Of a stretch of DNA of 49,376 nt, positions 4,239-48,195 are shown piece by piece. Source of the stretch: a virus. Lineage: Duplodnaviria; Heunggongvirae; Uroviricota; Caudoviricetes. Each line of letters begins with the position of its first letter. Position 1 is the stretch's first letter. A program made the translations under genes and the position numbers. Under the pieces are notes generated by a model, which ran no database searches, was not told the DNA's origin, and worked only from the letters and a program-made list of their open reading frames with translations. Where the stretch lies: positions 1-49,376 of the IMG/VR virus record IMGVR_UViG_2531839433_000005. The stretch is one strand, 5' to 3'.

Positions 4239-4800
4239 AATTATCTCCATTTTTACAAATGAACTTTGTTGATGCGGTGCCTGGTGCCTCCAGGTGACGT
4301 TAACCAGTTAACAATTAACGCCGGATACAGAGAACCCACCCATAACACTGTTTTTGGTTTTAACTGTTCCGCGTGCGCTTAGCCGCATTCACCGCATCAC
4401 AAAATTCACTTTAAAAAGGGCGGCAGAGCAGTCACGGAGTAAACTGATACCGCCAAACGCCACCAGAAAATTGATAACAGAGGGCGTTGTAGCGGGGTTG
4501 TCACTTAAGCGTATGGTCAACCTGACAACCCGGTGTCCTCAACGGGGAAGGAATAACCCCGCCATACTTACCGCCGCGCCATTTCGCGGATTGCCACAAC
4601 CGGAAGCGCACGGTCGAATTAAATTTAACGACACCGTACAGTGAGACGAACTTCGCCGTGCGCTTTCGCGTTATGCCCTGACTTTTCAGGAAAATGCCCT
4701 TTCAGTAAACTGTCAGTGCCGGATGCTCACCCGTGTCCGGCGCACGCACTCCACCTGACCCGTGGAGAACTCCTTAATTACCAACCCTCAGGAGGGTGAA

Positions 4801-5022
4801 ATGACTAGTAAAAATGTAAATATCCAGTTTAACCACGATGTTTCTCCTGCTGGACTTGCGGATGAGCTCACTGCTATAAAAACGGCAATTATGCTACTTG
4901 CTGCTAAGTTGCCTGCGTCATCAAAGCCAGCGGAAATTTGTGACTCATTGCGTAAGATGAATTCAACAAAATGCAATGAGATGGCATCACTTATTGAAAG
5001 TGCAATTGATTTTAATGATTAA
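4801..5022 (+). CDS. Hypothetical small protein (plus-strand gene inside leftward operon)
   Basis: ORF preceded by strong RBS AGGAGGG; 3' end overlaps the convergent ORF 5012..5386 by 11 bp; longer form would start at 4762. Confidence 0.4.
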   Translation: MTSKNVNIQFNHDVSPAGLADELTAIKTAIMLLAAKLPASSKPAEICDSLRKMNSTKCNEMASLIESAIDFND

Positions 5023-6023: not shown

Positions 6024-6234
6024 GTTCTTACGCCTCGGGCTGGCTACTTAACCCCTGACCACTGCCGGGTAACTCGAAGTATTGCCCTGCATTCTGTGGG
6101 GTGGAGTGAAGGAATGAATGAAGTTTAGAAAAATGAACTTTACAGGTCAATGTTTTTTTATCAAAACATTTTAAGCAGGCAGCTGTTAAGCCATCACCAC
6201 GATGGCATACAGTTAATCAAATAGATGAGGTTGG
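6024..6234. promoter_or_regulatory. Presumed leftward early promoter/operator region (pL-like)
   Basis: 210-bp non-coding gap between the cI stop and the first leftward early gene; contains TTTTGAT/ATCAAAA half-site-like motifs similar to those between cI and cro. Confidence 0.3.
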
Positions 6235-6873
6235 TTAAATATCTTGTTGAATTTTAAAGCATACGCCCAATATGCAAGATAGATCATCCAGCATAATTGA
6301 AGGGTAGCGAGGATTCGTGGGGACTAAAAGAATATCCGGCCCTTCTATCTCCAGTTTACGAATGACAGGTGTTGTGGTCCCTTTGGGTAAGGCAAGGACA
6401 ATATTTCCTGGTTGTACGGTTCGATCGGGATCAACAAAAACTGTTGAACCATTTGGGATGGAAACTCCCCCACCAGATGTTGACATACTGTCACTCTCTA
6501 GAACAACTGCAAAGGTATTGGCCGGGATTTCTCCGACAAGCTGCACACAAGAGGTTATTGAGGAATTTTTCATATAATCACTCCAGCTTGCTGCCTGCTG
6601 AAGTGATAGTAGCGGAACCGTTTTTATCGGCGGTAAAGATAGATCAAGCGAATCACCTGTATTTAACTCTCCTCCATTAAGAAGCCAATTTTCGTTTACT
6701 TTCAATATCTTTGCCAGTGAACTTATGTAACGCGAGGACGGCGCTCCTCCACCGTTCATCCATTGACTTACGGAGCCTTTTGATGCGCCAGTGGCATTGA
6801 CAAGGTCTTTGCCTTTCAGGTTTAGCGCATGCATACGTTGGGTTATGCGTTCAGATATTGTTTGCTTGCTCAT
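6235..6873 (-). CDS. cI: CI-type prophage repressor (XRE HTH + S24 LexA-like peptidase domain)
   Basis: 212 aa; N-terminal HTH; C-terminal DSMS Ser motif and downstream Lys (VIRKL) as in LexA/CI autocleavage domains; divergent from a Cro-like gene. Confidence 0.85.
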   Translation of the reverse strand: MSKQTISERITQRMHALNLKGKDLVNATGASKGSVSQWMNGGGAPSSRYISSLAKILKVNENWLLNGGELNTGDSLDLSLPPIKTVPLLSLQQAASWSDYMKNSSITSCVQLVGEIPANTFAVVLESDSMSTSGGGVSIPNGSTVFVDPDRTVQPGNIVLALPKGTTTPVIRKLEIEGPDILLVPTNPRYPSIMLDDLSCILGVCFKIQQDI

Positions 6874-6964
6874 GTTTTGATTTTAAAACACAGATGGTTT
6901 TGTTTCTTGACTTTCTTTGGTTTTGATTATTAAACTTTTGGCGTTCAGTTTTATGGAGCGACTC
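6874..6964. promoter_or_regulatory. Immunity operator/promoter region (oR, pR/pRM-like)
   Basis: Divergent intergenic region; repeated GTTTTGATT(T/A)TTAAAAC-like motifs at 6874..6891 and 6919..6935; candidate -35 TTGACT 6907..6912 and -10 TATTAA 6928..6933 reading toward cro. Confidence 0.4.
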
Positions 6965-7195
6965 ATGAAAAAATCAGAAGTATTAGGCTATTTTGGCGGA
7001 GTTGTTAAAACAGCCGCAGCTCTAGGAACGTCAAAAACCACAGTCAGCATGTGGGGGGAAGAGGTTCCGTGGAAATGGGCGTTGCTAATTCAGGCAGTCA
7101 CTGCCGGGGCGCTCAAATATGAGTTACACATACCGACGGTTGTCATTCCCGGTTCTGATCATAATCCGCCTTCTAACCAAGGGGGGGATTCATGA
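6965..7195 (+). CDS. Cro-like small HTH regulator
   Basis: 76-aa ORF divergent from cI with GGAG RBS; resembles Rac-type YdaS/Cro proteins as recalled. Confidence 0.6.
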   Translation: MKKSEVLGYFGGVVKTAAALGTSKTTVSMWGEEVPWKWALLIQAVTAGALKYELHIPTVVIPGSDHNPPSNQGGDS

Positions 7196-7617
7196 AAATC
7201 AAGCATGAACACATCCGCATGGCGATGAATGCCTGGGCGCATCCGGACGGCGAGAAAGTACCGGCTGCAGAGATTACCAAAGCGTATTTCGAGCTGGGAA
7301 TGACGTTCCCGGAACTGTATGACGACAGCCATCCGGAAGCCCTGGCTCGCAATACCCAGAAAATTTTCCGCTGGGTAGAGAAAGACACCCCTGATGCAGT
7401 TGAAAAAATTCAGGCGTTGTTACCAGCGATCGAAAAGGCAATGCCACCTTTGCTGGTGGCCAGAATGCGCAGCCACAGTTCTGCTTATTTTCGGGAGCTG
7501 GTGGAGACGCGGGAGCGACTGGTGAGAGACGCTGATGATTTTGTCGCAGTGGCAATCGCCGGTTTCAATCAGATGAACCGCGGTGGCCCGGCGGGAAATG
7601 CCGTGGTGATGCACTAA
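7192..7617 (+). CDS. CII-like / YdaT-like regulator
   Basis: 141-aa ORF translationally coupled to cro (ATGA overlap); N-terminus MKIKHEHI.. resembles the Rac YdaT family as recalled. Confidence 0.5.
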   Translation: MKIKHEHIRMAMNAWAHPDGEKVPAAEITKAYFELGMTFPELYDDSHPEALARNTQKIFRWVEKDTPDAVEKIQALLPAIEKAMPPLLVARMRSHSSAYFRELVETRERLVRDADDFVAVAIAGFNQMNRGGPAGNAVVMH

Positions 7618-7640
7618 AAGCACGGTGTTCGGAGTTTTTT

Positions 7641-8588
7641 ATGAGCAGCAAGCTTCATGGTCTTGTCTGGGAAGGGTGTGCCTTCACCGGCATGATCTTA
7701 TCCAGGGTGGCAGTTATGGCTCGCCTTGCAGATTACAGCAATGACGAAGGTGTGTCATGGCCTGCAGTGGAGACCATTCGTCGTCAGATTGGGGCAAAGA
7801 GTGAATCAACGGTTAAAGCTGCGATAGCAGAACTGGAAAAGAACGGCTGGCTGACGAAGGAGGAACGTAAGGTCGGTGGGCGTAATGAAAGCAATATCTA
7901 CCGTCTTAATGTGGAAAAACTCGAAGCAGCAGCAGCGGCAGCGCGTGAGGCATATAAACCGAAAAGAAAAATTAGCCAGGCAAAAAATGACCCGTCAAAT
8001 ATTGCCCCCTCAACGGTTAACCCATCAAATTTTGATGGATCAACCGTTGATAAAAAACAGTCGGATAGGGGGGCGATGGTTGGCCCCGATCCGTCAGTAT
8101 TAAAACCTGATCCGTCAGATAAAAGATCTTTTCGTCCGGAAGCTTCGCAACCGGACATGCAGACGGCTGAACAGGATTTTTTAACCCGACACCCTGACGC
8201 GGTTGTGTTCAGTGCGAAAAAACGCCAGTGGGGTAGCCAGGAAGATTTAGCGTGTGCGCAGTGGATCTGGGGGCGAATCGTGAGTCTTTACGAGCAGGCC
8301 GCCAGCGATGATGGCGAGATTTCGCGACCGAAAGAACCCAACTGGACCGCATGGGCCAACGACGTGCGCACAATGCGGATGCTGGATGGCAGAACTCACA
8401 GACAAATTTGTGAAATGTTTGGTCGGGTGCAGCGGGATCCATTTTGGGTAAAAAATATCATGAGTCCGTCAAAGCTTCGCGAAAAATGGGATGAACTGGT
8501 TATCCGCCTGGGGCGTTCGTCTGTACAGCGTTGTGTGAATCATATTTCTGAGCCGGATACCGAAATTCCGCCGGGGTTCAGGGGGTAA
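7641..8588 (+). CDS. Replication initiation protein (O-like, N-terminal winged-helix)
   Basis: 315-aa ORF directly upstream of the DnaC-like loader; standard lambdoid replication-module position. Confidence 0.6.
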   Translation: MSSKLHGLVWEGCAFTGMILSRVAVMARLADYSNDEGVSWPAVETIRRQIGAKSESTVKAAIAELEKNGWLTKEERKVGGRNESNIYRLNVEKLEAAAAAAREAYKPKRKISQAKNDPSNIAPSTVNPSNFDGSTVDKKQSDRGAMVGPDPSVLKPDPSDKRSFRPEASQPDMQTAEQDFLTRHPDAVVFSAKKRQWGSQEDLACAQWIWGRIVSLYEQAASDDGEISRPKEPNWTAWANDVRTMRMLDGRTHRQICEMFGRVQRDPFWVKNIMSPSKLREKWDELVIRLGRSSVQRCVNHISEPDTEIPPGFRG

Positions 8589-8594
8589 CGGGCC

Positions 8595-9341
8595 ATGAAA
8601 AATATCGCGGCAGGTGGTGTTCTTGAGCGTATCCGTAAGCTGACCCCGCAGCATGTAATCGCGCCGTACCGGACAGTGGACGAGTGGCGCGAGTGGCAAC
8701 TGGCAGAAGGGCGAAAACGTAGCGAGGAGATCAACCGCCAGAATCGCCAGTTGCGGGTGGAAAAAATCCTGAATCGTTCGGGCATCCAGCCTCTGCACAG
8801 CAAATGCTCGTTTGCGAATTATCAGGTGCAGAACGACGGGCAAAAACACGCGCTGAGCCAGGCAAAATCCATCGCTGACGAACTGATGACCGGGTGCACG
8901 AATTTTGTGTTCAGCGGTAAGCCGGGTACCGGAAAGAACCACCTTGCAGCCGCCATTGGCAATCATCTTCTGGCGAAAGGTCGCAGCGTGATTGTGATAA
9001 CGGTGGCTGATGTGATGCTGGCGTTACACAACAGCTACGACAACAAAAACTCAGGCGAAAAATTTTTACAGGGGTTGTGTGATGTTGACCTGCTTGTCCT
9101 GGATGAAATCGGAATGCAGCGGGATACGCGCAACGAGCAGGTCACGCTGAACCAGATAGTCGACCGCAGAACGGCTTCGATGCGTAGTGTCGGAATGCTG
9201 ACGAACCTTAACCACGTAGCGATGAGTACGCTTCTTGGCGAGCGTGTAATGGACCGCATGGTCATGAACGGTGGTCGCTGGGTGAATTTTAACTGGGAGA
9301 GCTGGCGTTCGAATGTCAGACACCTGAGGGTTGTGAAGTAA
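8595..9341 (+). CDS. DnaC-like helicase loader (AAA+ ATPase)
   Basis: Walker A GKPGTGKNHLAAAIG and Walker B DLLVLDEIG motifs; 248 aa. Confidence 0.85.
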   Translation: MKNIAAGGVLERIRKLTPQHVIAPYRTVDEWREWQLAEGRKRSEEINRQNRQLRVEKILNRSGIQPLHSKCSFANYQVQNDGQKHALSQAKSIADELMTGCTNFVFSGKPGTGKNHLAAAIGNHLLAKGRSVIVITVADVMLALHNSYDNKNSGEKFLQGLCDVDLLVLDEIGMQRDTRNEQVTLNQIVDRRTASMRSVGMLTNLNHVAMSTLLGERVMDRMVMNGGRWVNFNWESWRSNVRHLRVVK

Positions 9342-16074: not shown

Positions 16075-16434
16075 ATGCTCATAGATTTGGTTTTACCTTA
16101 CCCGCCGACGGTGAACACTTACTGGCGACGCCGTGGCAGCACATATTTTATCTCGGAGGAGGGAAAGCGTTATCGCCGTGATGTGGCGCTTATTGTTCGC
16201 CAGCAGCGACTGAAATTAAAGCTGTCCGGACGGCTGGCGATAAAGGTGATTGCAGAGCCACCGGATAAACGTCGTCGTGACCTGGACAATATCCTGAAAG
16301 CACCACTGGATGCACTGACACATGCGGGGTTGCTTATCGACGACGAGCAGTTTGATGAAATCAATATTGTGCGCGGTCAGCTCGTTCCTGGTGGGCGACT
16401 GGGGATAAAAATCACAGAATTGGGGTGCGCATGA
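16075..16434 (+). CDS. rusA: RusA-family Holliday junction resolvase
   Basis: 119 aa; conserved RRRDLDN and acidic residues as in RusA. Confidence 0.8.
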   Translation: MLIDLVLPYPPTVNTYWRRRGSTYFISEEGKRYRRDVALIVRQQRLKLKLSGRLAIKVIAEPPDKRRRDLDNILKAPLDALTHAGLLIDDEQFDEINIVRGQLVPGGRLGIKITELGCA

Positions 16435-17120
16435 ATAACCAGTATTTACAGTTTGTGCGTGAGCAGCTCATTATCGCCACCGCTGATTTGAGTGGGGCAA
16501 CAAAAGGTCAGCTTGAAGCCTGGCAGGAGAATGCCATGTTTGATACAGGGCGTTACAGGCGTAAAAAAATCCGGTACCGAGATGAAGTGACCGGAAAAAT
16601 GATTACGCGGGATAATCCACCAATCCCGGGGAAACAATCGCTGGCGAAGGGGACGTCAATTCCTCTGGTCAGTCCGGTTGAGTTTTCGACATCATCGTGG
16701 CGGCGGGCTGTTCTGTCTCTTGAAGAACATCATAAAGCCTGGTTGTTATGGTGTTACAGCGGGAGTATTTGTTGGGAATATCAGATCGCGATAACACAGT
16801 GGGCGTGGAATGAATTTAATACTCAATCCGGTACCAGAAAAATTGCAGGGAAAACGCAGGAACGCCTGAAAAAATTAATCTGGCTGGCGGCGCAGGCAGT
16901 AAAAGCAGAACTTTTTGGTGGGGAAGGTTATGAATACCAGGAGCTGGCATTACTGGCGGGAGTGACAACTAAAAACTGGTCCAAAACATTTACTCGTCAC
17001 TGGGTTGCAATGAAACACATTTTTCACCGACTGGATAGTGAGGCTTTATTGTTTGTAATGAGAACACGTTCAAAACAAAAGGCGGCATTTTCAAAGCAAA
17101 GTGTTGCAAAAGTAGATTGA
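16425..17120 (+). CDS. Putative late-gene antiterminator Q
   Basis: 231-aa ORF immediately upstream of a promoter/terminator pair, tRNAs and lysis genes (canonical Q position); family assignment by position only. Confidence 0.5.
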   Translation: MRMNNQYLQFVREQLIIATADLSGATKGQLEAWQENAMFDTGRYRRKKIRYRDEVTGKMITRDNPPIPGKQSLAKGTSIPLVSPVEFSTSSWRRAVLSLEEHHKAWLLWCYSGSICWEYQIAITQWAWNEFNTQSGTRKIAGKTQERLKKLIWLAAQAVKAELFGGEGYEYQELALLAGVTTKNWSKTFTRHWVAMKHIFHRLDSEALLFVMRTRSKQKAAFSKQSVAKVD

Positions 17121-17330: not shown

Positions 17331-17406
17331 GGCCCTTTAGCTCAGTGGTGAGAGCGAGCGACTCATAATCGCCAGGTCGCTGGTTCAAATCCAGCAAGGG
17401 CCACCA
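17331..17406 (+). tRNA. tRNA with CAT anticodon (Ile2/Met type)
   Basis: 76 nt; acceptor GGCCCTT/AAGGGCC, D-arm TAGCTCAGTGG, anticodon loop CTCATAA, T-loop GGTTCAAATCC, 3' CCA; resembles E. coli ileX as recalled. Confidence 0.75.
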
Positions 17407-17407
17407 A

Positions 17408-17484
17408 CCGTCACCAGTTCATCAGGAAAGAGCGTCAACCCTTTAAGTTGAGTGTGCGAGGTTCGAGTCCCCGGTGGCGGTCCA
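17408..17484 (+). tRNA. Atypical tRNA-like element (possible anticodon TTT; may be a pseudo-tRNA)
   Basis: Acceptor CCGTCAC/GTGGCGG with one G-U pair, T-loop TTCGAGT, 3' TCCA; D-arm and anticodon loop (C at position 33) are non-canonical. Confidence 0.35.
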
Positions 17485-17486
17485 GT

Positions 17487-17562
<76 letters not shown>

Positions 17563-17565
17563 TAT

Positions 17566-17640
<75 letters not shown>

Positions 17641-17942: not shown

Positions 17943-18107
17943 TCATTTTTTTTTCATGGCTCGCTACGGCGGGCCTTTTTCATATCCTCGCCACACCCGG
18001 CGCATATCACATCAAATAACGCCGCGCAAAAGGCATCTGCGGGTGCCTTTGACGGGGTGTTTTTACGGGCCGCTGGTGGCCCTTTTTTATTTACAGGAGA
18101 AAAACGT

Positions 18108-18497
18108 ATGTCTGAACCCTTATCCGGTTCCGGCACGGCTGCGGCGCTCGGTGGGGCGACGGTGTACGGGCTGTTTACCGGAACGGATTTCGGGATTGTG
18201 TTTGGTGCGTTCGCCGGGGCGTTATTTGTGGCAACGATGCCGCAGGCGCTTTCAGTCTGGCGTGTGGTGGCGCATTTTTTGGTGTCGTTTATCGTCGGCG
18301 TGCTGGGGGCGCGCGTGCTGTCAGCCTGGATTGCATCAAAAACAGGGTATGACGGTACATCGGCAGATGCGCTGTGTGCGGTGCTGGTATCGGTGGTGTC
18401 GGTGAAGATTCTGTCGTTCATCCACCAGCAGGATATTGCATCGCTGGTGTCCGGTGTGTTCTCCCGTCTGCGGGGTGGAGGCGGTAATGTTAAGTAA
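18108..18497 (+). CDS. Putative holin (multi-TM membrane protein)
   Basis: 129 aa from ATG with RBS AGGAGA; several Gly/Ala-rich hydrophobic segments; first gene of lysis cassette; a GC hairpin with T-run lies immediately upstream. Confidence 0.55.
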   Translation: MSEPLSGSGTAAALGGATVYGLFTGTDFGIVFGAFAGALFVATMPQALSVWRVVAHFLVSFIVGVLGARVLSAWIASKTGYDGTSADALCAVLVSVVSVKILSFIHQQDIASLVSGVFSRLRGGGGNVK

Positions 18498-18762
18498 CCT
18501 TCCCGGATTACTGAATGTGGTGTTAAGCACGGTTATCGTGCTGACGCTCTTTTTTTATCGTCGTGGTGATTCCAGACATAAACCGCTGATGTCGTGGCTG
18601 GCCTGGCTGCTGATGCTGCTGTATGCCTTTGCGCCACTTTGTTATCTGTGTGGTCGCTTTCCACCCGGTAACTGGCTGGTCGTCCTGATTAACCTGGTGT
18701 TCTGCGTGCTGGTGATACGAGCACGCGGGAACGTATCAAAAATCCTTTCATTACGGAGGTGA
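18487..18762 (+). CDS. Second small membrane protein of lysis cassette (holin/antiholin-like)
   Basis: 91 aa, two or three hydrophobic helices; start overlaps holin stop, end overlaps endolysin start. Confidence 0.5.
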   Translation: MLSNLPGLLNVVLSTVIVLTLFFYRRGDSRHKPLMSWLAWLLMLLYAFAPLCYLCGRFPPGNWLVVLINLVFCVLVIRARGNVSKILSLRR

Positions 18763-18764
18763 GT

Positions 18765-19142
18765 ATGCCCGGTAAATTCAGATTCAGTCGTCGAAGTGAG
18801 AAAAATCTGGAGGGCGTCAAACCACAGCTGGTTGCTGTTGTTCGCCGTGCGCTGGAGCTGACGGAGGTTGACTTCGGTATTACGGAAGGCCTGCGCAGTA
18901 AGTATCGCCAGAAGCAGCTGGTCGCGGAAGGGAAAAGCCAGACCATGAACAGCCGCCACCTGACCGGTGATGCGGTGGATGTTGTGGCCTACATTGGTAG
19001 CCAGGTGTCATGGGACTGGCCTCTGTACGAGAAAATCGCGCAGGCATTTAAGCAGGCTGCCGCAGAGCTGGGAACTGCCATCGAATGGGGCGGGGACTGG
19101 AAAACACTGAAAGACGGGCCTCACTTTCAGTTGAAGCGCTAA
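18765..19142 (+). CDS. Endolysin, peptidase M15 family (L-alanyl-D-glutamate peptidase type)
   Basis: About 125 aa; motif SRHLTGDAVD typical of M15 zinc peptidases; GGAGG RBS; alternative GTG start at 18759. Confidence 0.75.
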   Translation: MPGKFRFSRRSEKNLEGVKPQLVAVVRRALELTEVDFGITEGLRSKYRQKQLVAEGKSQTMNSRHLTGDAVDVVAYIGSQVSWDWPLYEKIAQAFKQAAAELGTAIEWGGDWKTLKDGPHFQLKR

Positions 19143-19156
19143 TAACCAGGTGGTTT

Positions 19157-19339
19157 ATGAGCCGAAAACACTGGACACACAGAATGCCGCGAACGGCGGC
19201 GAAATGGGCACTGGTAGCGATACTGGTGCCTTTTTTCCTGGTGGGATGCGTTAGCCTGGATAAGGTGCGCCAGCTTTTCGATACGGCCTCGCAGGTCTGC
19301 GAAATTGTCGAAAGTGCCAGGCAGTGTATGCAGAACTGA
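19157..19339 (+). CDS. Small lipoprotein (possible spanin-like lysis accessory)
   Basis: 60 aa; signal peptide with lipobox FLVGC; directly follows the endolysin. Confidence 0.5.
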   Translation: MSRKHWTHRMPRTAAKWALVAILVPFFLVGCVSLDKVRQLFDTASQVCEIVESARQCMQN

Positions 19340-19402
19340 TCGCCTGTAAGAGCAGAATATTGTTGAATCTAAGTAAGCGGCTCGTCAGAACCGTATTGAT
19401 AT

Positions 19403-20974
19403 TTACTGAGAGCTCAGATCAACTTTCCAGGGCAACAGATCGCGTACCCGGTTTGCCGGCCAGTCCTGGATATGTTCAATGACGTAGCGCAGCCACTTTT
19501 CTGGCTCCACATTGTTCAGACGGCATGTGCCGATCAGCGAGTACAACACCGCCGCATGTTCACCACCGCTGTCGGAACCCGCGAACATCCACTTTTTCCG
19601 GCCTACGGCCACTCCCCGTAAGGCGTTCTCTGCGATGTTGTTGTCGATTTCCACCCAGCCATTACTGCAGTACACGTTCAGTGCATCCCACTGTTTCAGC
19701 AGGTATGCGAACGCTTTTGCCGTATCTGAGTGACGCGACAGTGTTTTCATCTGTTGCTGTATCCAGTCATACAGTGACTGCATCAGTGGCGCGGCTCTGG
19801 TTTTTCTTGCCGCCAGACGCTGTTCTGCTGAACAGCCCCGGACCTCTGCCTCGATGGCATACAGTTCACCGATACGCTGCAGGGCTTCCGTGGTGATGTC
19901 GGTGGGCGCTCTTGCATGCACATCGTGGATTTTTCTCCGGGCATGAGCCATACACGCGGCTTCCGTTATTCTGCCGGATTCGTATAACGCCCGGTAACCA
20001 CCGTAAGCATCGGCCTGAAGCACACCGCTGTAACCGGCCAGGTGATTTTGTGGATGGATACCTTTCCGGTCCGGACTGTACGCGAACCAGACCGCCGGGG
20101 GCATCTGTGAACCGGCGTTACGGTCATCACGGACGTAGACCCACAGCCGGGCTGTCCGGGTTTTACCGCTGCCCGGCTCCTGGACCGGGACGGGGATATC
20201 ATCAGCATGGACTTTACCGGGCATCAGCACATACTGGCGCAGGACGTCATACAGCGGCTCCAGTAGTTCAGCAACGGCACCTGTCCAGCGCCCCAGTGTG
20301 GCACGGCTCAGCTCCACACCCTGACGGCGGTATATCTCTGACTGGCGGTATAACGGCAGATGGTCTGCATATTTTCCGGTGACGACATGGGCCAGGAGCC
20401 CCGCTCCGGCATAACTGCGTGCAATGGGTTTTGAAGGTACTGGTGCCTGCACGATATGGTCGCACCGACAACAGGCCAGTTTCGGACGTTGTGTTTCGAT
20501 AACCTTAAAGGCGCTGCTGATAAGCTCCAGTTGCTCTGACACATCACATCCCAGAGAACTGAGTTCACCACCACAGGCAGGACAGCATTCCTCTTCCGGC
20601 CGGATAACCCGGGTTTCACGGGGAAGTGAGGCCGGTAACGGTTTACGGGCTGAAGACTGGCGCAGGGCGGATGGCAGTACCGGGTCATATTGCTCACCCA
20701 GCGTTTCCGCCATTTCTTCCTGAAGTGCGCTGATTCGCTCCTGTGCTTCCTGTATCTGCCGTTCGGTTTTTGCACGAAGTTTTTCTGAGCTTTTACCGAA
20801 CTGCATACGTTGCAGTTTCGCAACCAGCGCCTTCAGCCGGTTGATTTCGGAAGCATAAGCCGCCACCCGCTGTGAGAGCAGGCGGTTGTATTCAGCCATC
20901 TGGCGGATGGTGTCCTGTTGCGTCTGCAACAGTGCCCGCAGGCGGGCGTTCTCATGAGCAAGTGAGGTGTCCAT
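19403..20974 (-). CDS. IS66-family transposase (TnpC/orfC)
   Basis: 523 aa; N-terminal coiled-coil/leucine zipper, CxxC zinc-finger-like motifs, DDE-type core as in IS66 transposases. Confidence 0.85.
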
Positions 20975-20993
20975 ATCCTCACTTTACAACGGG

Positions 20994-21341
20994 TTATATG
21001 CGGATTCCAGCGCGTTCCGTTCGTTTCGGGTGCTTCCAGTTGATACCTTCAAGAAGCATGGATAACTGAGCCGGAGTAAGGTGCACCTTGCCGTCACGGG
21101 TGACTGGCCAGACGAAGCGGCCCCGCTCCAGGCGTTTGGTGAAGAGGCACAGTCCGTCACTGTCAGCCCACAACACTTTTATCTGGTCACCCCGGCGTCC
21201 GCGGAAGATGAACAGGTGTCCGGAGAACGGGTCATCCTTCAGGACGTTCTGAACTTTTGATGCCAGGCCGTTAAAGCCATTTCGCATATCGGTGATACCT
21301 GCAACCAGCCAGATACGCGAACCTGCAGGGAGAGATATCAT
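20994..21341 (-). CDS. IS66 accessory protein TnpB (orfB)
   Basis: 115-aa ORF in the characteristic position, overlapping the orfA stop. Confidence 0.8.
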   Translation of the reverse strand: MISLPAGSRIWLVAGITDMRNGFNGLASKVQNVLKDDPFSGHLFIFRGRRGDQIKVLWADSDGLCLFTKRLERGRFVWPVTRDGKVHLTPAQLSMLLEGINWKHPKRTERAGIRI

Positions 21342-22018
21342 CAGTGGCTGCTCCCTTTTATTTCGCGGATAAGTGTCTGTAATAACGCCGGCGTCAGTTT
21401 ACCTTTAAGCCTGAGAGTTCCGGCCGGCAGAACCAGCTCACAACACAGACTGTCGGACGGTGTATTTATCTGCTCTGGTTCCTGTGCGGGGGCCGGGATT
21501 TTATTATCCGGCTCCGGCGTTAACGTCACGGGAAGCAGTGCCGGCATATTTTTTCCGGAAGGCAGCAGGCCACCTTTCCGGTATTGATGGCGCCAGTTGA
21601 AGAGCAGGTTATCGTTGATTCCGTTTTCCCGGGCGATCTGCGCCACACAGGCTCCGGGCTGCAGTGACTGCTCCACTAAGGCGATTTTAAACTCATAAGG
21701 GAAGTTGGGCCGCCGGGGACGTTTTTTTACCACGGGGGCTTCGGATATAACGGTGCTTTCAGGACGTACGACTGGTACCGTGGAAAATTGTCCGTAAAGG
21801 CAGGCATCAAGTTCCTGCTCCGACATGCCTGCGGGCAAAGGCCACGAAAGGCCAGCTCTCCGAAAGCGCACGAACATACTACAAACTGTTGATTTTGGTA
21901 CACCCAGGCGACGCCCGGCCACAACCCGGGGTAAATGTTCTTCAAAGTGAAGACGTAAAGCTTCAGTGATCCAGGTCCGGTGTTTCATACGATAGTGTCC
22001 ATTAAAAATGATGGACAT
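21341..22018 (-). CDS. IS66 accessory protein TnpA (orfA)
   Basis: 225-aa ORF at the upstream end of the IS; HTH-like N-terminus. Confidence 0.7.
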   Translation of the reverse strand: MSIIFNGHYRMKHRTWITEALRLHFEEHLPRVVAGRRLGVPKSTVCSMFVRFRRAGLSWPLPAGMSEQELDACLYGQFSTVPVVRPESTVISEAPVVKKRPRRPNFPYEFKIALVEQSLQPGACVAQIARENGINDNLLFNWRHQYRKGGLLPSGKNMPALLPVTLTPEPDNKIPAPAQEPEQINTPSDSLCCELVLPAGTLRLKGKLTPALLQTLIREIKGSSH

Positions 22019-22133
22019 TATTTTTGTAGAGCCGGAGGAAACAGACCAGACGGTTTAAATGAGCCGGTTACGAATCTAAATTTACTTTGAACAGTGGCCC
22101 GGATGGAAAGGGCATCTAAATAGGAGCAGAAAA

Positions 22134-22343
22134 ATGTTAACTGTAAAAGTCATGTCTCAAAATGGTGGGGAAGAGCTCCATTGCGGGCGTAGCATTGGCT
22201 ATCATCCAGAGCAGCGGAGTATTGCCGTATCGGGAAAGGATGGGAAAGTCATTCTGAAAGATGGAGATATTGCTTATGTAATGAACCAAAACGCTCAAAT
22301 AATATCTGTTTATCGGCCCAATAATAGTCAGAAAAACATTTGA
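22134..22343 (+). CDS. Hypothetical small protein (AT-rich)
   Basis: 69-aa ORF with AGGAG RBS in an AT-rich segment between the IS and cos. Confidence 0.4.
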   Translation: MLTVKVMSQNGGEELHCGRSIGYHPEQRSIAVSGKDGKVILKDGDIAYVMNQNAQIISVYRPNNSQKNI

Positions 22344-22466
22344 ATTTCGCAAGTCCAAAGTTCAGTGGTGATCGTTATCAACTAATTGAAATAACAAGCT
22401 TATGTTTGTGTAATTGGTGATATAGCATGTTAATGCTGAATATCAGCGTCAACATGGAGTTATACA

Positions 22467-22682
22467 ATGGTTTTTAAACACTATTACGTGAACAAAAATG
22501 CTCAGAGCAATGGCGATCATGAGGTGCATGCTGAGGAATGTTCATATCTTCCTGCTGTAGCTAACCGCGATTACCTTGGTTACTATAGTGATTGTTCTTC
22601 GGCGGTAACAGAGGCAAAGGCCAAAGGATATTCCCGGGTGAATGGTTGCTATTGGTGTGCCAATAAGTGCCACACGTCTTAA
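22467..22682 (+). CDS. Hypothetical small Cys-rich protein
   Basis: 71 aa with C..C..CYWCANKCH cysteine cluster; followed by a terminator. Confidence 0.45.
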   Translation: MVFKHYYVNKNAQSNGDHEVHAEECSYLPAVANRDYLGYYSDCSSAVTEAKAKGYSRVNGCYWCANKCHTS

Positions 22683-22701
22683 TCAATTGTCAATAAACCA
22701 T

Positions 22702-22726
22702 AAAGGCCGCTCTGCGGCCTTTTTCA
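22702..22726 (+). terminator. Rho-independent terminator
   Basis: AGGCCGC-TCT-GCGGCCT hairpin followed by TTTTT. Confidence 0.6.
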
Positions 22727-23003
22727 TGTTAAAAAAGATTGCGGCATTACAGCAGCCCTTCACACTGAGTGGCTGCGATAATGTGAGAAATAAAAAACCG
22801 GCAGGGGAAATCCATTGAAGATTTGCCGGTGGCAAAAAGATGGCCATGCTTTCAACCTTAGTCGCAGGGTTACGGAGTGCAACTACGAATGCTGCCGGTA
22901 TATGGCTGAATGGCGTTTCAATGATGTACGTCATCTTATCTGTAAATGTTAATGATAAACGCTCTCATTTGTGCGGGTCCTTCCGGTGGGGTGGCCTGCC
23001 ACG

Positions 23004-23015
23004 GGGCGGAAGGCG
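23004..23015 (+). other. cosN: predicted 12-nt cohesive end (packaging nick site)
   Basis: Flanks ..TCCTTCCGGTG..CACG|GGGCGGAAGGCG|CGCGGGTTTTCGCTATTTATGAAAATTTTCCGG parallel the lambda cos region as recalled; the 12-mer differs from lambda GGGCGGCGACCT in its last six positions. Confidence 0.5.
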
Positions 23016-23175
23016 CGCGGGTTTTCGCTATTTATGAAAATTTTCCGGGGAAAATCATGTCGGTACTTCTCGAACATAACTATTTGTTTTTTCTAATATC
23101 GAATCCGTAAAAGGTCCGACATGAAAACGCCTAAAAAAGTCATTTTCGGGCACTTTCATGTCGGACCCTGTGTTT
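23016..23175 (+). promoter_or_regulatory. cosB-like region with three R-type repeats
   Basis: CATGTCGG at 23056..23063 and 23157..23164 and its reverse complement CCGACATG at 23116..23123, between cosN and nu1. Confidence 0.4.
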
Positions 23176-23191
23176 GTTGTGAGACTGTTTC

Positions 23192-23711
23192 ATGAAGGTT
23201 AATAAAAAGAAACTTGCCGAAATTTTCAACGTGGATCCGCGAACGATTGAACGCTGGCAGTCTCAGGGACTCCCTTGCGTCTCCGGAGGTGGTAAGGGCG
23301 TTGAATCTGTATTTGATACCTCCATGGCAATTCAGTGGTATGCGCAGAGGGAGGCTGATATCGAAAATGAAAAACTCCGTAAAGAGGTTGAGGATTTCAG
23401 GGCTGCCAGTGAGGCAGATCTCCAGCCTGGGACTATTGAGTACGAACGCCATCGACTTACGCGTGCGCAGGCTGACGCCCAGGAGCTGAAGAATGCCAGA
23501 GACTCCGCAGAAGTGGTGGAAACCGCATTCTGTACTTTCGTGCTGTCACGGATCGCAGGTGAAATTGCCAGTATTCTTGACGGGATCCCTCTCTCGGTAC
23601 AGCGGCGTTTTCCGGAACTGGAAAACCGACATGTTGATTTCCTGAAACGGGATATCATCAAAGCCATGAACAAAGCAGCCGCGCTGGATGAACTGATACC
23701 GGGGTTGCTGA

Positions 23712-42700: not shown

Positions 42701-45676
42701 GTGAGTATGGCAGTAAAGATTTCAGGTGTACTGAAAGATGGTGCAGGTAAGCCGATACAAAACTGCACCATTCAGCTAAAGGCCAGGCGCAACAGCACCA
42801 CGGTGGTGGTGAACACAGTGGCCTCAGAAAACCCGGATGAAGCCGGGCGTTACACAATGGACGTCGAGTATGGTCAGTACAGCGTCAGTCTGTTGGTGGA
42901 GGGATTCCCGCCGTCACACGCCGGGATTATCACTGTATATGAGGACTCAAAGCCGGGCACACTGAATGATTTCCTCGGTGCAATGACGGAGGATGATGTC
43001 CGGCCAGAGGCACTGCGCCGTTTTGAACTGATGGTGGAAGAGGTGGCGCGTAACGCGTCCGCAGTGGCACAGAACACGGCAGCTGCGAAGAAGTCAGCCA
43101 GCGATGCCAGCACATCAGCCCGTGAGGCGGCAACCCATGCGACTGATGCTGCAGACTCAGCACGCGCAGCCAGCACGTCAGCCGGACAGGCCGCGACGTC
43201 GGCTCGGTCAGCGTCTTCCAGCGCAGGAACGGCATCAACAAAGGCCAGTGAAGCAGCGAAAAGTGCTGCTGCTGCAGAGTCATCAAAAAGCGCGGCAGCT
43301 ACCAGCGCCAGTGCCGCGAAAACGTCAGAAACGAATGCCGCAGCATCACAAAAATCGGCAGCCACTTCTGCATCCACAGCGACCACGAAGGCGTCAGAAG
43401 CTGCCACCTCGGCACGGGGTGCGGCGGCCTCAAAAGAGGCAGCGAAATCATCAGAAACGAATGCATCATCAAGTGCCAGTAGTGCAGCTTCCTCGGCAAC
43501 GGCGGCAGGAAATTCCGCGAAGGCGGCAAAAACGTCCGAGACGAACGCCAGGTCTTCTGAAACAGCAGCGGGACAGAGCGCCTCAGCTGCGGCAGGTTCA
43601 AAAACAGCGGCTGCGTCGTCTGCCAGTGCCGCGTCAACAAGTGCCGGGCAGGCCTCAGCCAGTGCCACCGCCGCCGGAAAATCGGCAGAAAGCGCCGCAT
43701 CATCCGCTTCAACAGCCACAACGAAGGCTGGCGAAGCCACTGAGCAGGCCACTGCAGCAGCGAGGTCTGCTTCTGCAGCAAAAACCTCTGAAACAAATGC
43801 AAAGACTTCAGCAGACAATGCTGCTTCCTCTAAGGCGGCAGCCGCATCGTCCGCTGGTTCAGCGGCGTCATCGGCATCATCTGCGTCTGCTTCAAAAGAT
43901 GAGGCGACCAGACAAGCGTCAGCAGCGAAAGGTAGTGCCACGACAGCAACAACGAAAGCATCAGAGGCGGCAGGCAGTGCGACGGCTGCATCTCAGAGCA
44001 AAGTTGCTGCTGAATCCGCGGCAACGCGTGCCGAAACAGCAGCAAAACGGGCAGAGGATATTGCTGATGCCGTATCTCTGGAAGATGCGAGCACGACGAA
44101 AAAAGGTGTGGTTCAGCTTAGTAGTGCAACCAATAGCACATCTGAAACGCAGGCTGCAACGCCGAAAGCAGTAAAGGCCGCGTATGACCTTGCTGGCGCA
44201 AAATATACCGCTCAGGACGCCACGACGGCACAAAAAGGGATAGTCCAGCTCAGTAGTGCCACCAACAGCACGTCTGAAACACTGGCTGCGACACCGAAAG
44301 CGGTTAAGGCGGTAATGGATGAAACAAATAAGAAAGCCCCATTAAACAGCCCGGCGCTGACCGGAACGCCAACAACGCCAACTGCGCCAAAAGGGACTAA
44401 TAATACTCAGATCGCAAGCACGGCTTATGTGATGGCCGCGATTGCCGCACTTGTAGATTCGTCACCTGATGCACTGAACACGCTGAACGAGCTGGCGGCG
44501 GCGCTGGGCAACGACCCGAATTTTGCGACCACCATGACTAACGCGCTTGCGGGTAAGCAACCGAAAGATGCCACCCTGACGGCGCTGGCCGGGCTTGCTA
44601 CTGCGGCAGACAAGTTTCCGTATTTTACGGGGAATGATGTCGCCAGCCTGGCAACTCTGACAAAAGTCGGGCGGGATATTCTTGCGAAATCGACCGTTGC
44701 CGCTGTTATCGAATACCTCGGTTTACAGGAAACGGTAAATCAGGCTTCTGGCGCATTACAGAAAAACCAGAACGGCGCAGATATTCCGGGAAAAGATACC
44801 TTCACCAAAAATATTGGGGCCTGCCGCGCATATAGCGCATGGCTGAATATTGGTGGCGATAGTCAGGCCTGGACAACCGCGCAATTTATTTCGTGGCTGG
44901 AGAGTCAGGGAGCATTTAACCATCCTTACTGGATGTGCAAAGGCTCATGGGCTTATGCAAATAATAAGGTCATTACAGATACAGGTTGCGGAAATATTTG
45001 TCTTGCAGGTGCTGTGGTGGAAGTTATTGGCACTCGCGGCGCAATGACCATACGCGTTACTACGCCGAGCACGTCCAGCGGCGGCGGAATTACTAACGCT
45101 CAATTCACCTATATTAATCATGGTGATGCTTATGCTCCTGGCTGGCGACGAGACTACAACACGAAAAACCAGCAGCCTGCATTTGCTTTAGGGCAGACAG
45201 GAAGCAGGGTTGCAAATGATAAAGCTGTTGGCTGGAACTGGAATAGCGGTGTTTATGATGCAGATATCAAAGGCGCAACAGCATTAATACTCCACTTCAA
45301 TATGAATACGGGGAGTTGCCCTGCCGTACAGTTCCGTGTGAATTACAGGAACGGCGGTATCTTTTATCGTTCAGCGCGTGATGGTTATGGCTTTGAAGAT
45401 AACTGGTCAGCGTTTTACACCACAACCTACAAACCCTCTGCGGGGGATGTTGGTGCATATACCAAAGCGGAATGTAACTCAAAGTTTATTACAGGTATTC
45501 GTCTGGGCGGTCTGTCATCTGTTCAGACATGGAATGGTCCCGGCTGGTCTGACAGGTCAGGTTATGTCGTTACGGGTTCAGTTAACGGAAACCGTGATGA
45601 ATTAATTGATACAACACAGGCAAGGCCAGTTCAGTATTGCATTAATGGAACGTGGTATAACGCGGGGAGTATTTAA
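42701..45676 (+). CDS. stf: Side tail fibre protein (Stf-like) with invertible C-terminal part
   Basis: 991 aa; conserved N-terminus, long Ala/Ser/Thr-rich repeat region, two copies of the tail-fibre repeat (..VQLSSATNSTSET.AATPKAVK..), C-terminal domain encoded inside the invertible segment. Confidence 0.85.
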   Translation: MSMAVKISGVLKDGAGKPIQNCTIQLKARRNSTTVVVNTVASENPDEAGRYTMDVEYGQYSVSLLVEGFPPSHAGIITVYEDSKPGTLNDFLGAMTEDDVRPEALRRFELMVEEVARNASAVAQNTAAAKKSASDASTSAREAATHATDAADSARAASTSAGQAATSARSASSSAGTASTKASEAAKSAAAAESSKSAAATSASAAKTSETNAAASQKSAATSASTATTKASEAATSARGAAASKEAAKSSETNASSSASSAASSATAAGNSAKAAKTSETNARSSETAAGQSASAAAGSKTAAASSASAASTSAGQASASATAAGKSAESAASSASTATTKAGEATEQATAAARSASAAKTSETNAKTSADNAASSKAAAASSAGSAASSASSASASKDEATRQASAAKGSATTATTKASEAAGSATAASQSKVAAESAATRAETAAKRAEDIADAVSLEDASTTKKGVVQLSSATNSTSETQAATPKAVKAAYDLAGAKYTAQDATTAQKGIVQLSSATNSTSETLAATPKAVKAVMDETNKKAPLNSPALTGTPTTPTAPKGTNNTQIASTAYVMAAIAALVDSSPDALNTLNELAAALGNDPNFATTMTNALAGKQPKDATLTALAGLATAADKFPYFTGNDVASLATLTKVGRDILAKSTVAAVIEYLGLQETVNQASGALQKNQNGADIPGKDTFTKNIGACRAYSAWLNIGGDSQAWTTAQFISWLESQGAFNHPYWMCKGSWAYANNKVITDTGCGNICLAGAVVEVIGTRGAMTIRVTTPSTSSGGGITNAQFTYINHGDAYAPGWRRDYNTKNQQPAFALGQTGSRVANDKAVGWNWNSGVYDADIKGATALILHFNMNTGSCPAVQFRVNYRNGGIFYRSARDGYGFEDNWSAFYTTTYKPSAGDVGAYTKAECNSKFITGIRLGGLSSVQTWNGPGWSDRSGYVVTGSVNGNRDELIDTTQARPVQYCINGTWYNAGSI
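44707..44732. other. Left crossover site of Gin/Pin-type inversion system
   Basis: TTATCGAATACCTCGGTTTACAGGAA, inverted copy of the site at 47921..47946; about 75 bp of near-identical flanking inverted repeat. Confidence 0.7.
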
Positions 45677-45678
45677 TC

Positions 45679-46212
45679 ATGATGCACTTAAAAAACATTA
45701 CTGCTGGCAATCCTAAAACAAAAGAGCAATACCAGCTAACAAAGCAATTTAACATCAAATGGCTTTATTCAGATGATGGAAAAAACTGGTATGAGGAACA
45801 AAAGAATTTCCGGCCAGACACATTGAAAATGGCCTATGACCATAACGGCGTTATTATTTGTATTGAAAAGGATGTTTCAGCAATTAATCCGGAAGGCGCA
45901 AGCGTCGTTGAATTACCTGATATTACAGCAAATCGCCGTGCTGATATTTCGGGTAAATGGATGTTCAAAGATGGCGTAGTGATAAAGCGAACTTATACCG
46001 AAGAGGAACAGAGGCAGCAGGCAGAGAATGAAAAGCAAAGCCTGTTGCAACTTGTCAGGGATAAAACCCAGCTATGGGACTCACAGCTACGGCTGGGCAT
46101 CATTTCCGACGAGAATAAACAAAAATTAACCGAGTGGATGCTCTATGCGCAGAAAGTCGAATCTACAGACACCTCCAGCCTGCCAGTAACATTTCCCGAA
46201 CAACCTGAATGA
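45679..46212 (+). CDS. tfa: Tail fibre assembly protein (Tfa), orientation A
   Basis: 177 aa, N-terminus [21 protein letters not shown].. typical of the Tfa/gp38 chaperone family. Confidence 0.8.
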   Translation: MMHLKNITAGNPKTKEQYQLTKQFNIKWLYSDDGKNWYEEQKNFRPDTLKMAYDHNGVIICIEKDVSAINPEGASVVELPDITANRRADISGKWMFKDGVVIKRTYTEEEQRQQAENEKQSLLQLVRDKTQLWDSQLRLGIISDENKQKLTEWMLYAQKVESTDTSSLPVTFPEQPE

Positions 46213-46214
46213 GA

Positions 46215-46245
46215 CAAGGCCCGATAGCGGGCCTTAATTTTTATT
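46215..46245. terminator. Bidirectional hairpin terminator between convergent tfa genes
   Basis: AGGCCCG-ATAGC-GGGCCT hairpin with A/T-rich flanks. Confidence 0.5.
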
Positions 46246-46771
46246 CAGGCTTTTGTGGCCATTCAGGATTTGCCCTATCCACACGGCTGACCAGAACACT
46301 GTAGCGTTCCCATGCTTCCAGTCGTGTGCGTTCCTCGTCTGTTGCCATATTCAACCTGACAGCGCGTTCCAGCGGCTGGATGACTGATTCAGCTTCGGAA
46401 AGCAATGCGGCCTTTTGTGATTCGGCCTGTTGTTGCTGTTCGTCTGCCGTATAAATCCGTTTAACCACAGCTCCATCCTTAAACATCCACTTTCCTGAAT
46501 CATCAGCGCGGCGGTTGGCTGTAATATCTGGAACCTCGACAACGCTAAAACCTTCGGGATTAAGCGTGGATGCATCTTTGGTGATGGCGACAATAATATT
46601 ATTTGCATCGTAAACAATCTTTATTGTGTCTGGCTGAAAGTTTTTCACTTCCTCATACCAGTTTTTACCGTCTTCTGTATATAACCAGATAACATCAAAA
46701 TTCTTTGTTAGCTGATATTGCTCTTTTGTTTTTGGATTTCCTGACTTAATATTTTTTAAATGCTGCATCAT
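46241..46771 (-). CDS. tfa: Tail fibre assembly protein (Tfa'), orientation B
   Basis: 176 aa, paralogous to tfa on the opposite strand ([22 protein letters not shown]..). Confidence 0.8.
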
Positions 46772-47920
46772 TTACACCTGTGCGACGTTATACCATGTGC
46801 CATTGATGTATTTTTGTATTGGTCTGAAGATGGCTTCATCATCGCCATCTACTTCACCAATGATTCTTAATCCGGTAATTGCGTGTCCGGCTTTTTCATA
46901 GCGACCACCACGCGCCATCAATTGAACAACACGCGTACCCAGGCGAACATCTTTCACATAGCGGGAATCAAAATTCCCCCAGTTGCTGGGCTGCATCTGA
47001 CCGTTAACAGCAAATGTTACTGAGTTATCTGTATTTCGCTGACTATAGAAATGCCAGCCTGAATCATCACCAAGCTCTGCAACAGTTGGTCTTGATGAAG
47101 TGCCCCATAAATAAAACTTTGCGTTCTTCGTGGAGTTGTTGGAGCTGGATAGCGAGAATTTTTTACTATCACCTGCCTGAATGTTTTTAAAAGCAATAGC
47201 CACTCCATTCTGAAAGCGGAATACTCGCTGACTATTAGCGTAAACATCCAGAATACCATCACCATTCTGTTTAAATCCGGTATCATTATCACCCAAAACA
47301 ATCGAGTTACCGCCAAGAGCACTGGATGTTCCGATGCCCAGAGCACCATTCAATTGACCGCCAGATAATGACAACGCCCCAACCTCAGCAGCAGTCGGTT
47401 TAATGTGCGAACTGTAAATTACATATACAGTTCCATCTGTCAGGCCTGTTGGTTTATTCGCTGTATAAGTTGGTGATGTATGAATCGTTACGCTGGCGTT
47501 ACCGGTATAATCCCACTGAATATTAACACCTGTGGCGTAATTACCTATTTCAACATAAACATCATAGGTATCACCGGATGTATTCACCCATGCAATATTA
47601 GTAAATCCAGCCGATGTTCGTCGCCATAATGCACCAGTAATACCTTTTGGATTCCCATTTCCGGCACGCAGAACCAGCTCAGAGATGCCTGCCTGATGCG
47701 GGGCGCCAACGTTATACCCTGCGCCACCAATCAGGCTTATGTAAACCACGGAACTGGCTTGTGGCATTGTTACAGTTGCCAGTTTGAACCATCCAGCCCC
47801 ACCACTAAAAGACATGGTTGTTGAATTTGTTGTGCCGATATTACGCAGGAATAGTTTTTTATCGGGAATATCTGCGCCGTTCTGTTTTTTCTGTAATGCG
47901 CCAGAAGCCTGATTTACCGT
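46772..47920 (-). CDS. Alternative tail-fibre C-terminal variable segment (start-less in this orientation)
   Basis: Open frame on the minus strand from the right crossover site through a 347-aa ORF ending ..INGTWYNVAQV (cf. stf C-terminus ..INGTWYNAGSI); would be fused in frame to the constant stf 5' part after inversion. Confidence 0.6.
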   Translation of the reverse strand, partial: TVNQASGALQKKQNGADIPDKKLFLRNIGTTNSTTMSFSGGAGWFKLATVTMPQASSVVYISLIGGAGYNVGAPHQAGISELVLRAGNGNPKGITGALWRRTSAGFTNIAWVNTSGDTYDVYVEIGNYATGVNIQWDYTGNASVTIHTSPTYTANKPTGLTDGTVYVIYSSHIKPTAAEVGALSLSGGQLNGALGIGTSSALGGNSIVLGDNDTGFKQNGDGILDVYANSQRVFRFQNGVAIAFKNIQAGDSKKFSLSSSNNSTKNAKFYLWGTSSRPTVAELGDDSGWHFYSQRNTDNSVTFAVNGQMQPSNWGNFDSRYVKDVRLGTRVVQLMARGGRYEKAGHAITGLRIIGEVDGDDEAIFRPIQKYINGTWYNVAQV

Positions 47921-47946
47921 TTCCTGTAAACCGAGGTTTTAGATAA
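47921..47946. other. Right crossover site of Gin/Pin-type inversion system
   Basis: TTCCTGTAAACCGAGGTTTTAGATAA, resembles gix/hix/pix-type 26-bp sites as recalled; immediately upstream of the invertase start. Confidence 0.7.
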
Positions 47947-48000
47947 TGGCGGTTTCTGGCCTGCATGGCATGATTTGTGCTTTTGGACGGGAGATTCAGC

Positions 48001-48195
48001 GTGCTGATTGGCTATGTAAGGGTATCAACAAATGACCAGAATACAGACCTGCAACGAAACGCTCTTGTTTGTGCAGGATGTGAACAAATATTTGAAGATA
48101 AATTAAGCGGAACAAGGACAGGCCAACCTGGATTAAAACGTGCTTTAAAGCGCCTTCAAAAAGGTGACGCACTGGTTGTCTGGAAACTGGACTGA
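48001..48195 (+). pseudogene. Truncated serine DNA invertase (Pin/Gin/Hin family), N-terminal 64 codons only
   Basis: (V)LIGYVRVSTNDQNTDLQRNALVCAGCEQIFEDKLSGTRTG..LVVWKLD then stop; the catalytic-Ser region (YVRVST) is present but the rest of the catalytic domain and the C-terminal HTH are missing. Confidence 0.8.

Follow-up and report, generated by a model that had tools for sequence, protein, structure and literature searches.

A complete, probably transposition-competent ISCro1 element between the lysis cassette and cos of an ompW-integrated lambdoid prophage in an ETEC lineage

The stretch of DNA analysed here (the window, 49,376 bp) corresponds to positions 57366-106741 of the Escherichia coli 504239 chromosome, bar a few SNPs and an inversion at ~44.7-47.95 kb. 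It carries a lambdoid prophage whose integration site is the 3' end of ompW (window 1-49376; NZ_CP025859.1 57201-107406). The last ~125 bp of ompW is present again at the far end of the prophage, as a duplicate with 77.6% identity. The two ompW 3' ends are 50,084 bp apart, and the prophage is therefore ~50.1 kb long with the insertion sequence (IS) described below, and ~47.4 kb without it. The late region ahead of the IS runs in the order Q, tRNA cluster, two holins, M15 endolysin and a lipobox-like ORF of 60 aa. Beyond the IS come two small genes without an assigned function, a strong bidirectional hairpin terminator at 22702-22722, and then cos. The features of the insertion region are as follows.

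16431-17120: Q antiterminator, intact (RefSeq annotation)
18108-19339, + strand: lysis cassette: two holin genes, an M15 endolysin gene and a 60-aa ORF containing LVGC, a lipobox-like motif (PHROGs, RefSeq)
19365-19372: left copy of the 8-bp target-site duplication, GAATCTAA, adjoining the element end
19373-22071, genes on the - strand: ISCro1 (IS66 family), complete, 2699 bp; full-length copies 99.9-100% identical at other loci
19373-19394: terminal inverted repeat IRR, tnpC-distal end, GTAAGCGGCTCGTCAGAACCGT
19403-20974, - strand: tnpC, DDE transposase, 523 aa (PF03050, PF13007, PF13005, PF13817; NF033517)
20994-21341, - strand: tnpB, IS66 Orf2-type accessory protein, 115 aa (PF05717; NF033819)
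21341-22018, - strand: tnpA, HTH accessory protein, 225 aa (PF01527 HTH_Tnp_1; NF038385)
22050-22071: terminal inverted repeat IRL, tnpA-proximal end, reverse complement GTAACCGGCTCATTTAAACCGT
22072-22079: right copy of the 8-bp target-site duplication, GAATCTAA, adjoining the element end
22134-22343, + strand: 69-aa hypothetical protein, first gene downstream of the IS (phrog_3909, unknown function)
23004-23015, + strand: inferred cosN cohesive-end position (alignment to phage 21)
23192-23737, + strand: terminase small subunit (PHROG 57)

The element landed in a spacer of 87 bp that separates the final ORF of the lysis cassette from a small hypothetical gene and is AT-rich, with a GC content of 40% compared with 51% for the window. 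The IS lies 25 bp past the stop codon of the 60-aa ORF (19157-19339; phrog_7528, function unassigned in PHROGs), 54 bp ahead of the start codon (ATG) of the 69-aa ORF, the ribosome-binding site of which is intact, and 925 bp upstream of cos. The element is oriented antisense to the direction of phage late transcription. Searching for an exact or near match to the lambda cosN was uninformative, and cos was placed by homology to phage 21 instead: the cos and genome records of phage 21 align, from their base 13, with the window from 23016 onward, so the cohesive end was assigned to ~23004-23015. An earlier reading of the DNA, made from the sequence only, had located the insertion between the lysis cassette and cos; this is correct, with the lysis genes upstream and cos at ~23004. 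No ORF spans the target in the empty site, which lies between annotated CDSs in E24377A. Disruption of a gene by the IS was considered and rejected, as no coding sequence is interrupted.

The prophage that carries the element has several irregularities of its own. Two overlapping ORFs, 38497-39192 and 39153-41975, take the place of an undivided tail tip gene J, which is flagged as frameshifted in the RefSeq record of strain 504239; this split is the strongest sign of a prophage defect. The same record lists cro as frameshifted and dicB as partial. The cro-like gene (6965-7208), which bears the RefSeq frameshift flag, adjoins a CI-like repressor ORF (6235-6873) that encodes 212 aa in the window, whereas in 504239 the annotation is confined to its 112 C-terminal aa (LexA family). 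Taken from sequence, the prophage is probably defective irrespective of the IS.

The 3.25 kb tail-fibre segment at 44700-47952 is inverted relative to the otherwise near-identical strain 504239, and has at its two ends inverted repeats of 95 bp (44700-44794 and 47858-47952) with 92% complementarity. The segment looks like an invertible host-range segment of the Gin/Pin/Min type. The annotated 'recombinase family protein' beside it (48001-48195) is only 64 aa long, so inversion may be driven in trans. ARAGORN calls four genes in the tRNA cluster that follows Q and precedes the lysis genes (17331-17640): CAT (an Ile tRNA in RefSeq), Lys-TTT (17408-17484), Thr-TGT and Gly-TCC. Only three of them are in RefSeq, which lacks Lys-TTT.

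A 1.2-kb stretch that includes the endolysin, the insertion site and two small ORFs is 100% identical in prophages with different early and head genes (503440). The same endolysin-to-small-ORF stretch is also identical in the heavily deleted prophage of E24377A (window 18700-22680 compared with L001 and L007), in which the small terminase gene is directly followed by a Lom fragment and stfR. This distribution points clearly to modular exchange of the endolysin/insertion-site segment between prophages.

Re-inspection of the window sequence delimited the IS66-family element to 19373-22071, a length of 2699 bp. It contains three genes in the order tnpA-tnpB-tnpC. The tnpA stop codon overlaps the tnpB ATG (TGATG, 21339-21343), and 19 bp separate the end of tnpB from the start of tnpC. 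TnpA scored 296 bits against the NCBIfam model NF038385 (IS66_access_TnpA; cut-off 150), and TnpB, an accessory protein of the IS66 Orf2 type, matched PF05717 (TnpB_IS66) at 4.7e-40 and NF033819 at 129 bits (cut-off 50). TnpC is a DDE transposase of the type found in the family, with zinc-finger and leucine-zipper N-terminal parts: its domains are leucine-zipper, zf-IS66, DDE_Tnp_IS66 and IS66_C. It matched Pfam PF03050 (DDE_Tnp_IS66) at 1e-102 over profile positions 1-283 of 284, and the NCBIfam equivalog NF033517 at 476 bits (cut-off 180). We aligned TnpC with relatives of 55-97% identity from Citrobacter, Hafnia, Cupriavidus and a Lachnospiraceae MAG. Residues D258/D259, D322 and E442, and the CxAHARRK motif at 341-348, were invariant, a conservation pattern that is as would be expected for an intact DDE enzyme.

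The IS66-family inverted-repeat consensus is 5'-GTAA(G/C)CG, as known from ISfinder and from Han et al. 2001. Both ends of the element start in this way: the terminal inverted repeats GTAAGCGGCTCGTCAGAACCGT and GTAACCGGCTCATTTAAACCGT are imperfect, and match at 17 of 22 positions. The IRR end abuts differing flanking sequences in eight other copies of the element. Outside the inverted repeats lie the two identical copies of GAATCTAA, an 8-bp duplication of the size found in the family. The octamer occurs exactly twice in the 49,376-bp window, both times directly at the element ends. Around one copy per window would be expected by chance, and 26 of 100 shuffled sequences reached two copies; the count alone is consequently weak proof, and it is the abutment of both ends that carries the weight. 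Neither a second IS copy nor IS fragments were found elsewhere in the window. The sequence-only reading had described a 2699-bp, three-ORF element of IS66 type with imperfect terminal inverted repeats and a perfect 8-bp direct repeat. Each part of that description holds: coordinates, length and ORF number are right, the protein profile scores exceed the curated cut-offs, the ends are of the GTAA type, and the flanking octamers at 19365-19372 and 22072-22079 are identical.

To reconstruct the empty site, 600 bp of each flank was joined by a single GAATCTAA and the resulting query was searched against complete E. coli genomes. The reconstructed site was contiguous, ungapped and 100% identical over 1200 bp in at least seven complete genomes, including E24377A, and at least 80% of the query was covered in 17 complete genomes. 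The E24377A target is intergenic, lying between CDS 4385-4567 and CDS 4655-4864 of locus L001. Because the empty site holds one GAATCTAA and matches perfectly across 1200 bp, the element arrived by simple transposition, which bears out the earlier proposal of a simple insertion. Perfect 8-bp duplications, all different, also flank six of the eight other copies that we retrieved (99.9-100% identical), and it follows that the ends are as delimited here and that the element has moved repeatedly.

We are therefore highly confident that window 19373-22071 is an intact, probably transposition-competent ISCro1 that entered the ompW lambdoid prophage of an ETEC lineage by simple transposition. Competence is probable, judging from the intact ORFs and from the 100% identical copies found at several loci of the same genomes with distinct target-site duplications. 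By analogy with the family, TnpC, assisted by its accessory proteins TnpA and TnpB, would be the DDE transposase that joins the GTAAGCG/GTAACCG-type ends to the target; the target would be cut with an 8-bp stagger, the repair of which would have duplicated GAATCTAA.

Two of the retrieved copies lack a target-site duplication. Both are on plasmids, p504239_155 (L008) and p67_83 (L014), between traD and a thermonuclease gene, and their flanking octamers, GACCAACT and CGGTGGTC, are reciprocally swapped. The swapped flanks suggest recombination or inversion between IS copies.

Six complete ETEC genomes have the left junction of the insertion at 100% identity; the isolates come from several countries, India and Saudi Arabia among them. 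The insertion is thus an inherited lineage marker and not an event specific to one strain. This qualifies the earlier view that the insertion is recent. The perfect duplication and the identity of the element to other copies agree with that view, but the insertion predates the spread of the lineage, as six genomes share the junction.

A further ISCro1 was found in the same spacer of the ETEC isolate L3_E36 (NZ_LR882997.1), 12 bp upstream and in the same orientation (L004, reverse complement, 6181-8895, corresponding to window 19353-19360). This copy has its own target-site duplication, CAGAATAT, and shows seven mismatches to the window copy, and GAATCTAA is single and intact beside it. It sits in a different mosaic lambdoid prophage, with flanks 98.8% identical to those in the window. 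On this sequence evidence, the L3_E36 insertion is independent of the one in the window.

The proximity of the two insertions raises the question of whether ISCro1 prefers to insert into the spacer that divides the lysis cassette from the 69-aa gene, favoured there by local DNA structure or composition or by coupling to replication, or whether a neutral site was hit at random. The independent L3_E36 event only 12 bp away and in the same orientation is in keeping with a hotspot, as is the AT-rich composition of the spacer (40% GC against 51% for the window); beta-clamp-binding motifs in TnpB/TnpC and an orientation bias have been reported for the family (PMC3971601). However, there are only two events, and of the 339 genomes with part of the module, most match unbroken across the site, which is thus empty in them. 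Eight other target-site duplications share no common sequence and range from very AT-rich to GC-rich, and no target consensus is apparent among the ten duplications collected. Insertions into neutral intergenic prophage DNA are also the ones that would be expected to survive. Survival in neutral DNA is an adequate explanation and two events do not establish a hotspot, so that we regard a preferred target as unlikely. The stricter proposal, that ISCro1 favours this ~90-bp AT-rich spacer and enters it in one orientation, with at least two independent insertions, is a speculation to which we give still less credence; if true, it would indicate that an IS66-family element chooses its target by structure or in a manner coupled to replication.

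In a simple transposition into the spacer, the consequence for the prophage is most likely close to neutral, as read from the sequence. A sigma-70 consensus scan of 18000-23300 found no outward or interrupted promoter, and a simple scan of the + strand inside the IS revealed a few weak terminator-like hairpins (for example, 21474-21497). The Q-modified RNA polymerase of lambdoid phages reads through terminators. An effect of the IS on late transcription is possible in principle, as the head and tail genes lie downstream in the late direction, but is expected to be small given an intact Q, whose modified polymerase is resistant to terminators. The suggestion that the insertion alters lysis timing is unsupported: every lysis gene lies upstream of the intergenic IS, and polarity on lysis cannot arise from an element downstream of all of them.

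A more consequential outcome would be an IS that is polar on the head and tail genes, or that pushes the prophage towards its packaging limit, and so helps to lock the prophage in, on a path to domestication or decay. All structural genes (23192-46411) are downstream of the IS in the late direction, where polarity would act. The insertion enlarges the prophage by 2.7 kb, from ~47.4 to ~50.1 kb. The packaging ceiling of lambda is ~105% of its 48.5 kb genome, and the prophage at ~50.1 kb (~103%) comes near to it; the split J and frameshifted cro show that other defects exist. ISCro1 can also depress a neighbouring gene, having lowered afaA transcription in ST131 when located in the promoter region (PMC8764528). 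Yet in the prophage no ORF, ribosome-binding site or recognizable promoter is interrupted, Q is intact and its modified polymerase would pass terminators, the lysis genes are upstream and escape polarity, and 50.1 kb is still inside the lambda packaging range. We therefore consider a disruptive role quite improbable. As for the claim that the IS adds to the signs of prophage decay, such signs do exist elsewhere (the split J, cro and dicB), but the IS itself is weak evidence of decay because it breaks no gene.

That the element is an inactive relic, or that its 8-bp repeat is coincidental or an assembly artefact, is hardly conceivable: one GAATCTAA would be expected by chance in a window of this size, but the repeats sit at the exact IS ends, the empty site holds a single copy, all three ORFs are full length, identical copies elsewhere have different duplications, and the junction is common to six independent complete assemblies. 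A chance repeat or artefact was ruled out by the empty site, the shared junctions and the duplications of the other copies.

The intact ISCro1 at 19373-22071 is an ordinary, already annotated IS insertion that matters little. It can serve as a clean lineage marker for one ETEC clade, for which occupied and empty sites are both at hand. As a 2.7-kb passenger, it brings the prophage near the packaging ceiling of lambda. The genome holds several identical ISCro1 copies able to mediate rearrangements, and the swapped plasmid flanks suggest past events of this kind; the insertion gives the genome one more homologous copy for IS-mediated rearrangement. The one point of mild interest, for target choice in the IS66 family, is the pair of independent insertions 12 bp apart.

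The element is a common one. BLAST against complete E. coli genomes found at least 80% of it covered at one place in 1493 of 5426 genomes, with a best match of at least 99% identity in 1785 records; at least 80% was covered at one place in 1399 plasmid records. Copies that are 99.9-100% identical are present on the chromosomes and plasmids of many ETEC strains, often several per genome. The insertion is already annotated at the same position in the record of strain 504239 in RefSeq; the element is known, and nothing about it is novel.

Three named elements of the family invite comparison. ISEc8, an IS66-family element of O157:H7 Stx prophages, likewise resides inside lambdoid prophages, but shares only ~71% nucleotide identity with our element over part of tnpC, and is thus a different element. 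Han et al. reportedly described IS679 and the IS66 prototype elements in 2001 (J Bacteriol 183:4296). These share with the window element the three ORFs, the translational overlap of tnpA and tnpB with tnpC shortly downstream, the imperfect inverted repeats that start with GTAA, the 8-bp duplication and a size of ~2.7 kb. IS679 is nevertheless a different named element, here compared by description only, and Citrobacter rodentium has been reported with IS679 and ISCro1 as separate entries (PMC3072379).

The closest counterpart is ISCro1. RefSeq labels the tnpC of identical copies, which also have tnpA and tnpB, as 'IS66-like element ISCro1 family transposase'. ISCro1 was first named in C. rodentium ICC168 and is widespread in E. 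coli chromosomes and plasmids. No C. rodentium locus was among those returned by our scan of genome contigs for the element. ISCro1 has undergone expansion in C. rodentium, to 24 copies (PMC3072379), and has been published as 2699 bp long with an 8-bp target-site duplication (PMC12115866); one paper gives 2,824 bp for the copy in EC958 (PMC8764528). We detected no difference between the window element and ISCro1, as judged by the RefSeq label and the published description rather than by the ISfinder reference. We identify the element as ISCro1 on the basis of the RefSeq 'ISCro1 family' label and the matching published length and duplication: the two have in common the 2699 bp, the 8-bp target-site duplication, the tnpA-tnpB-tnpC order and the many identical copies per genome.
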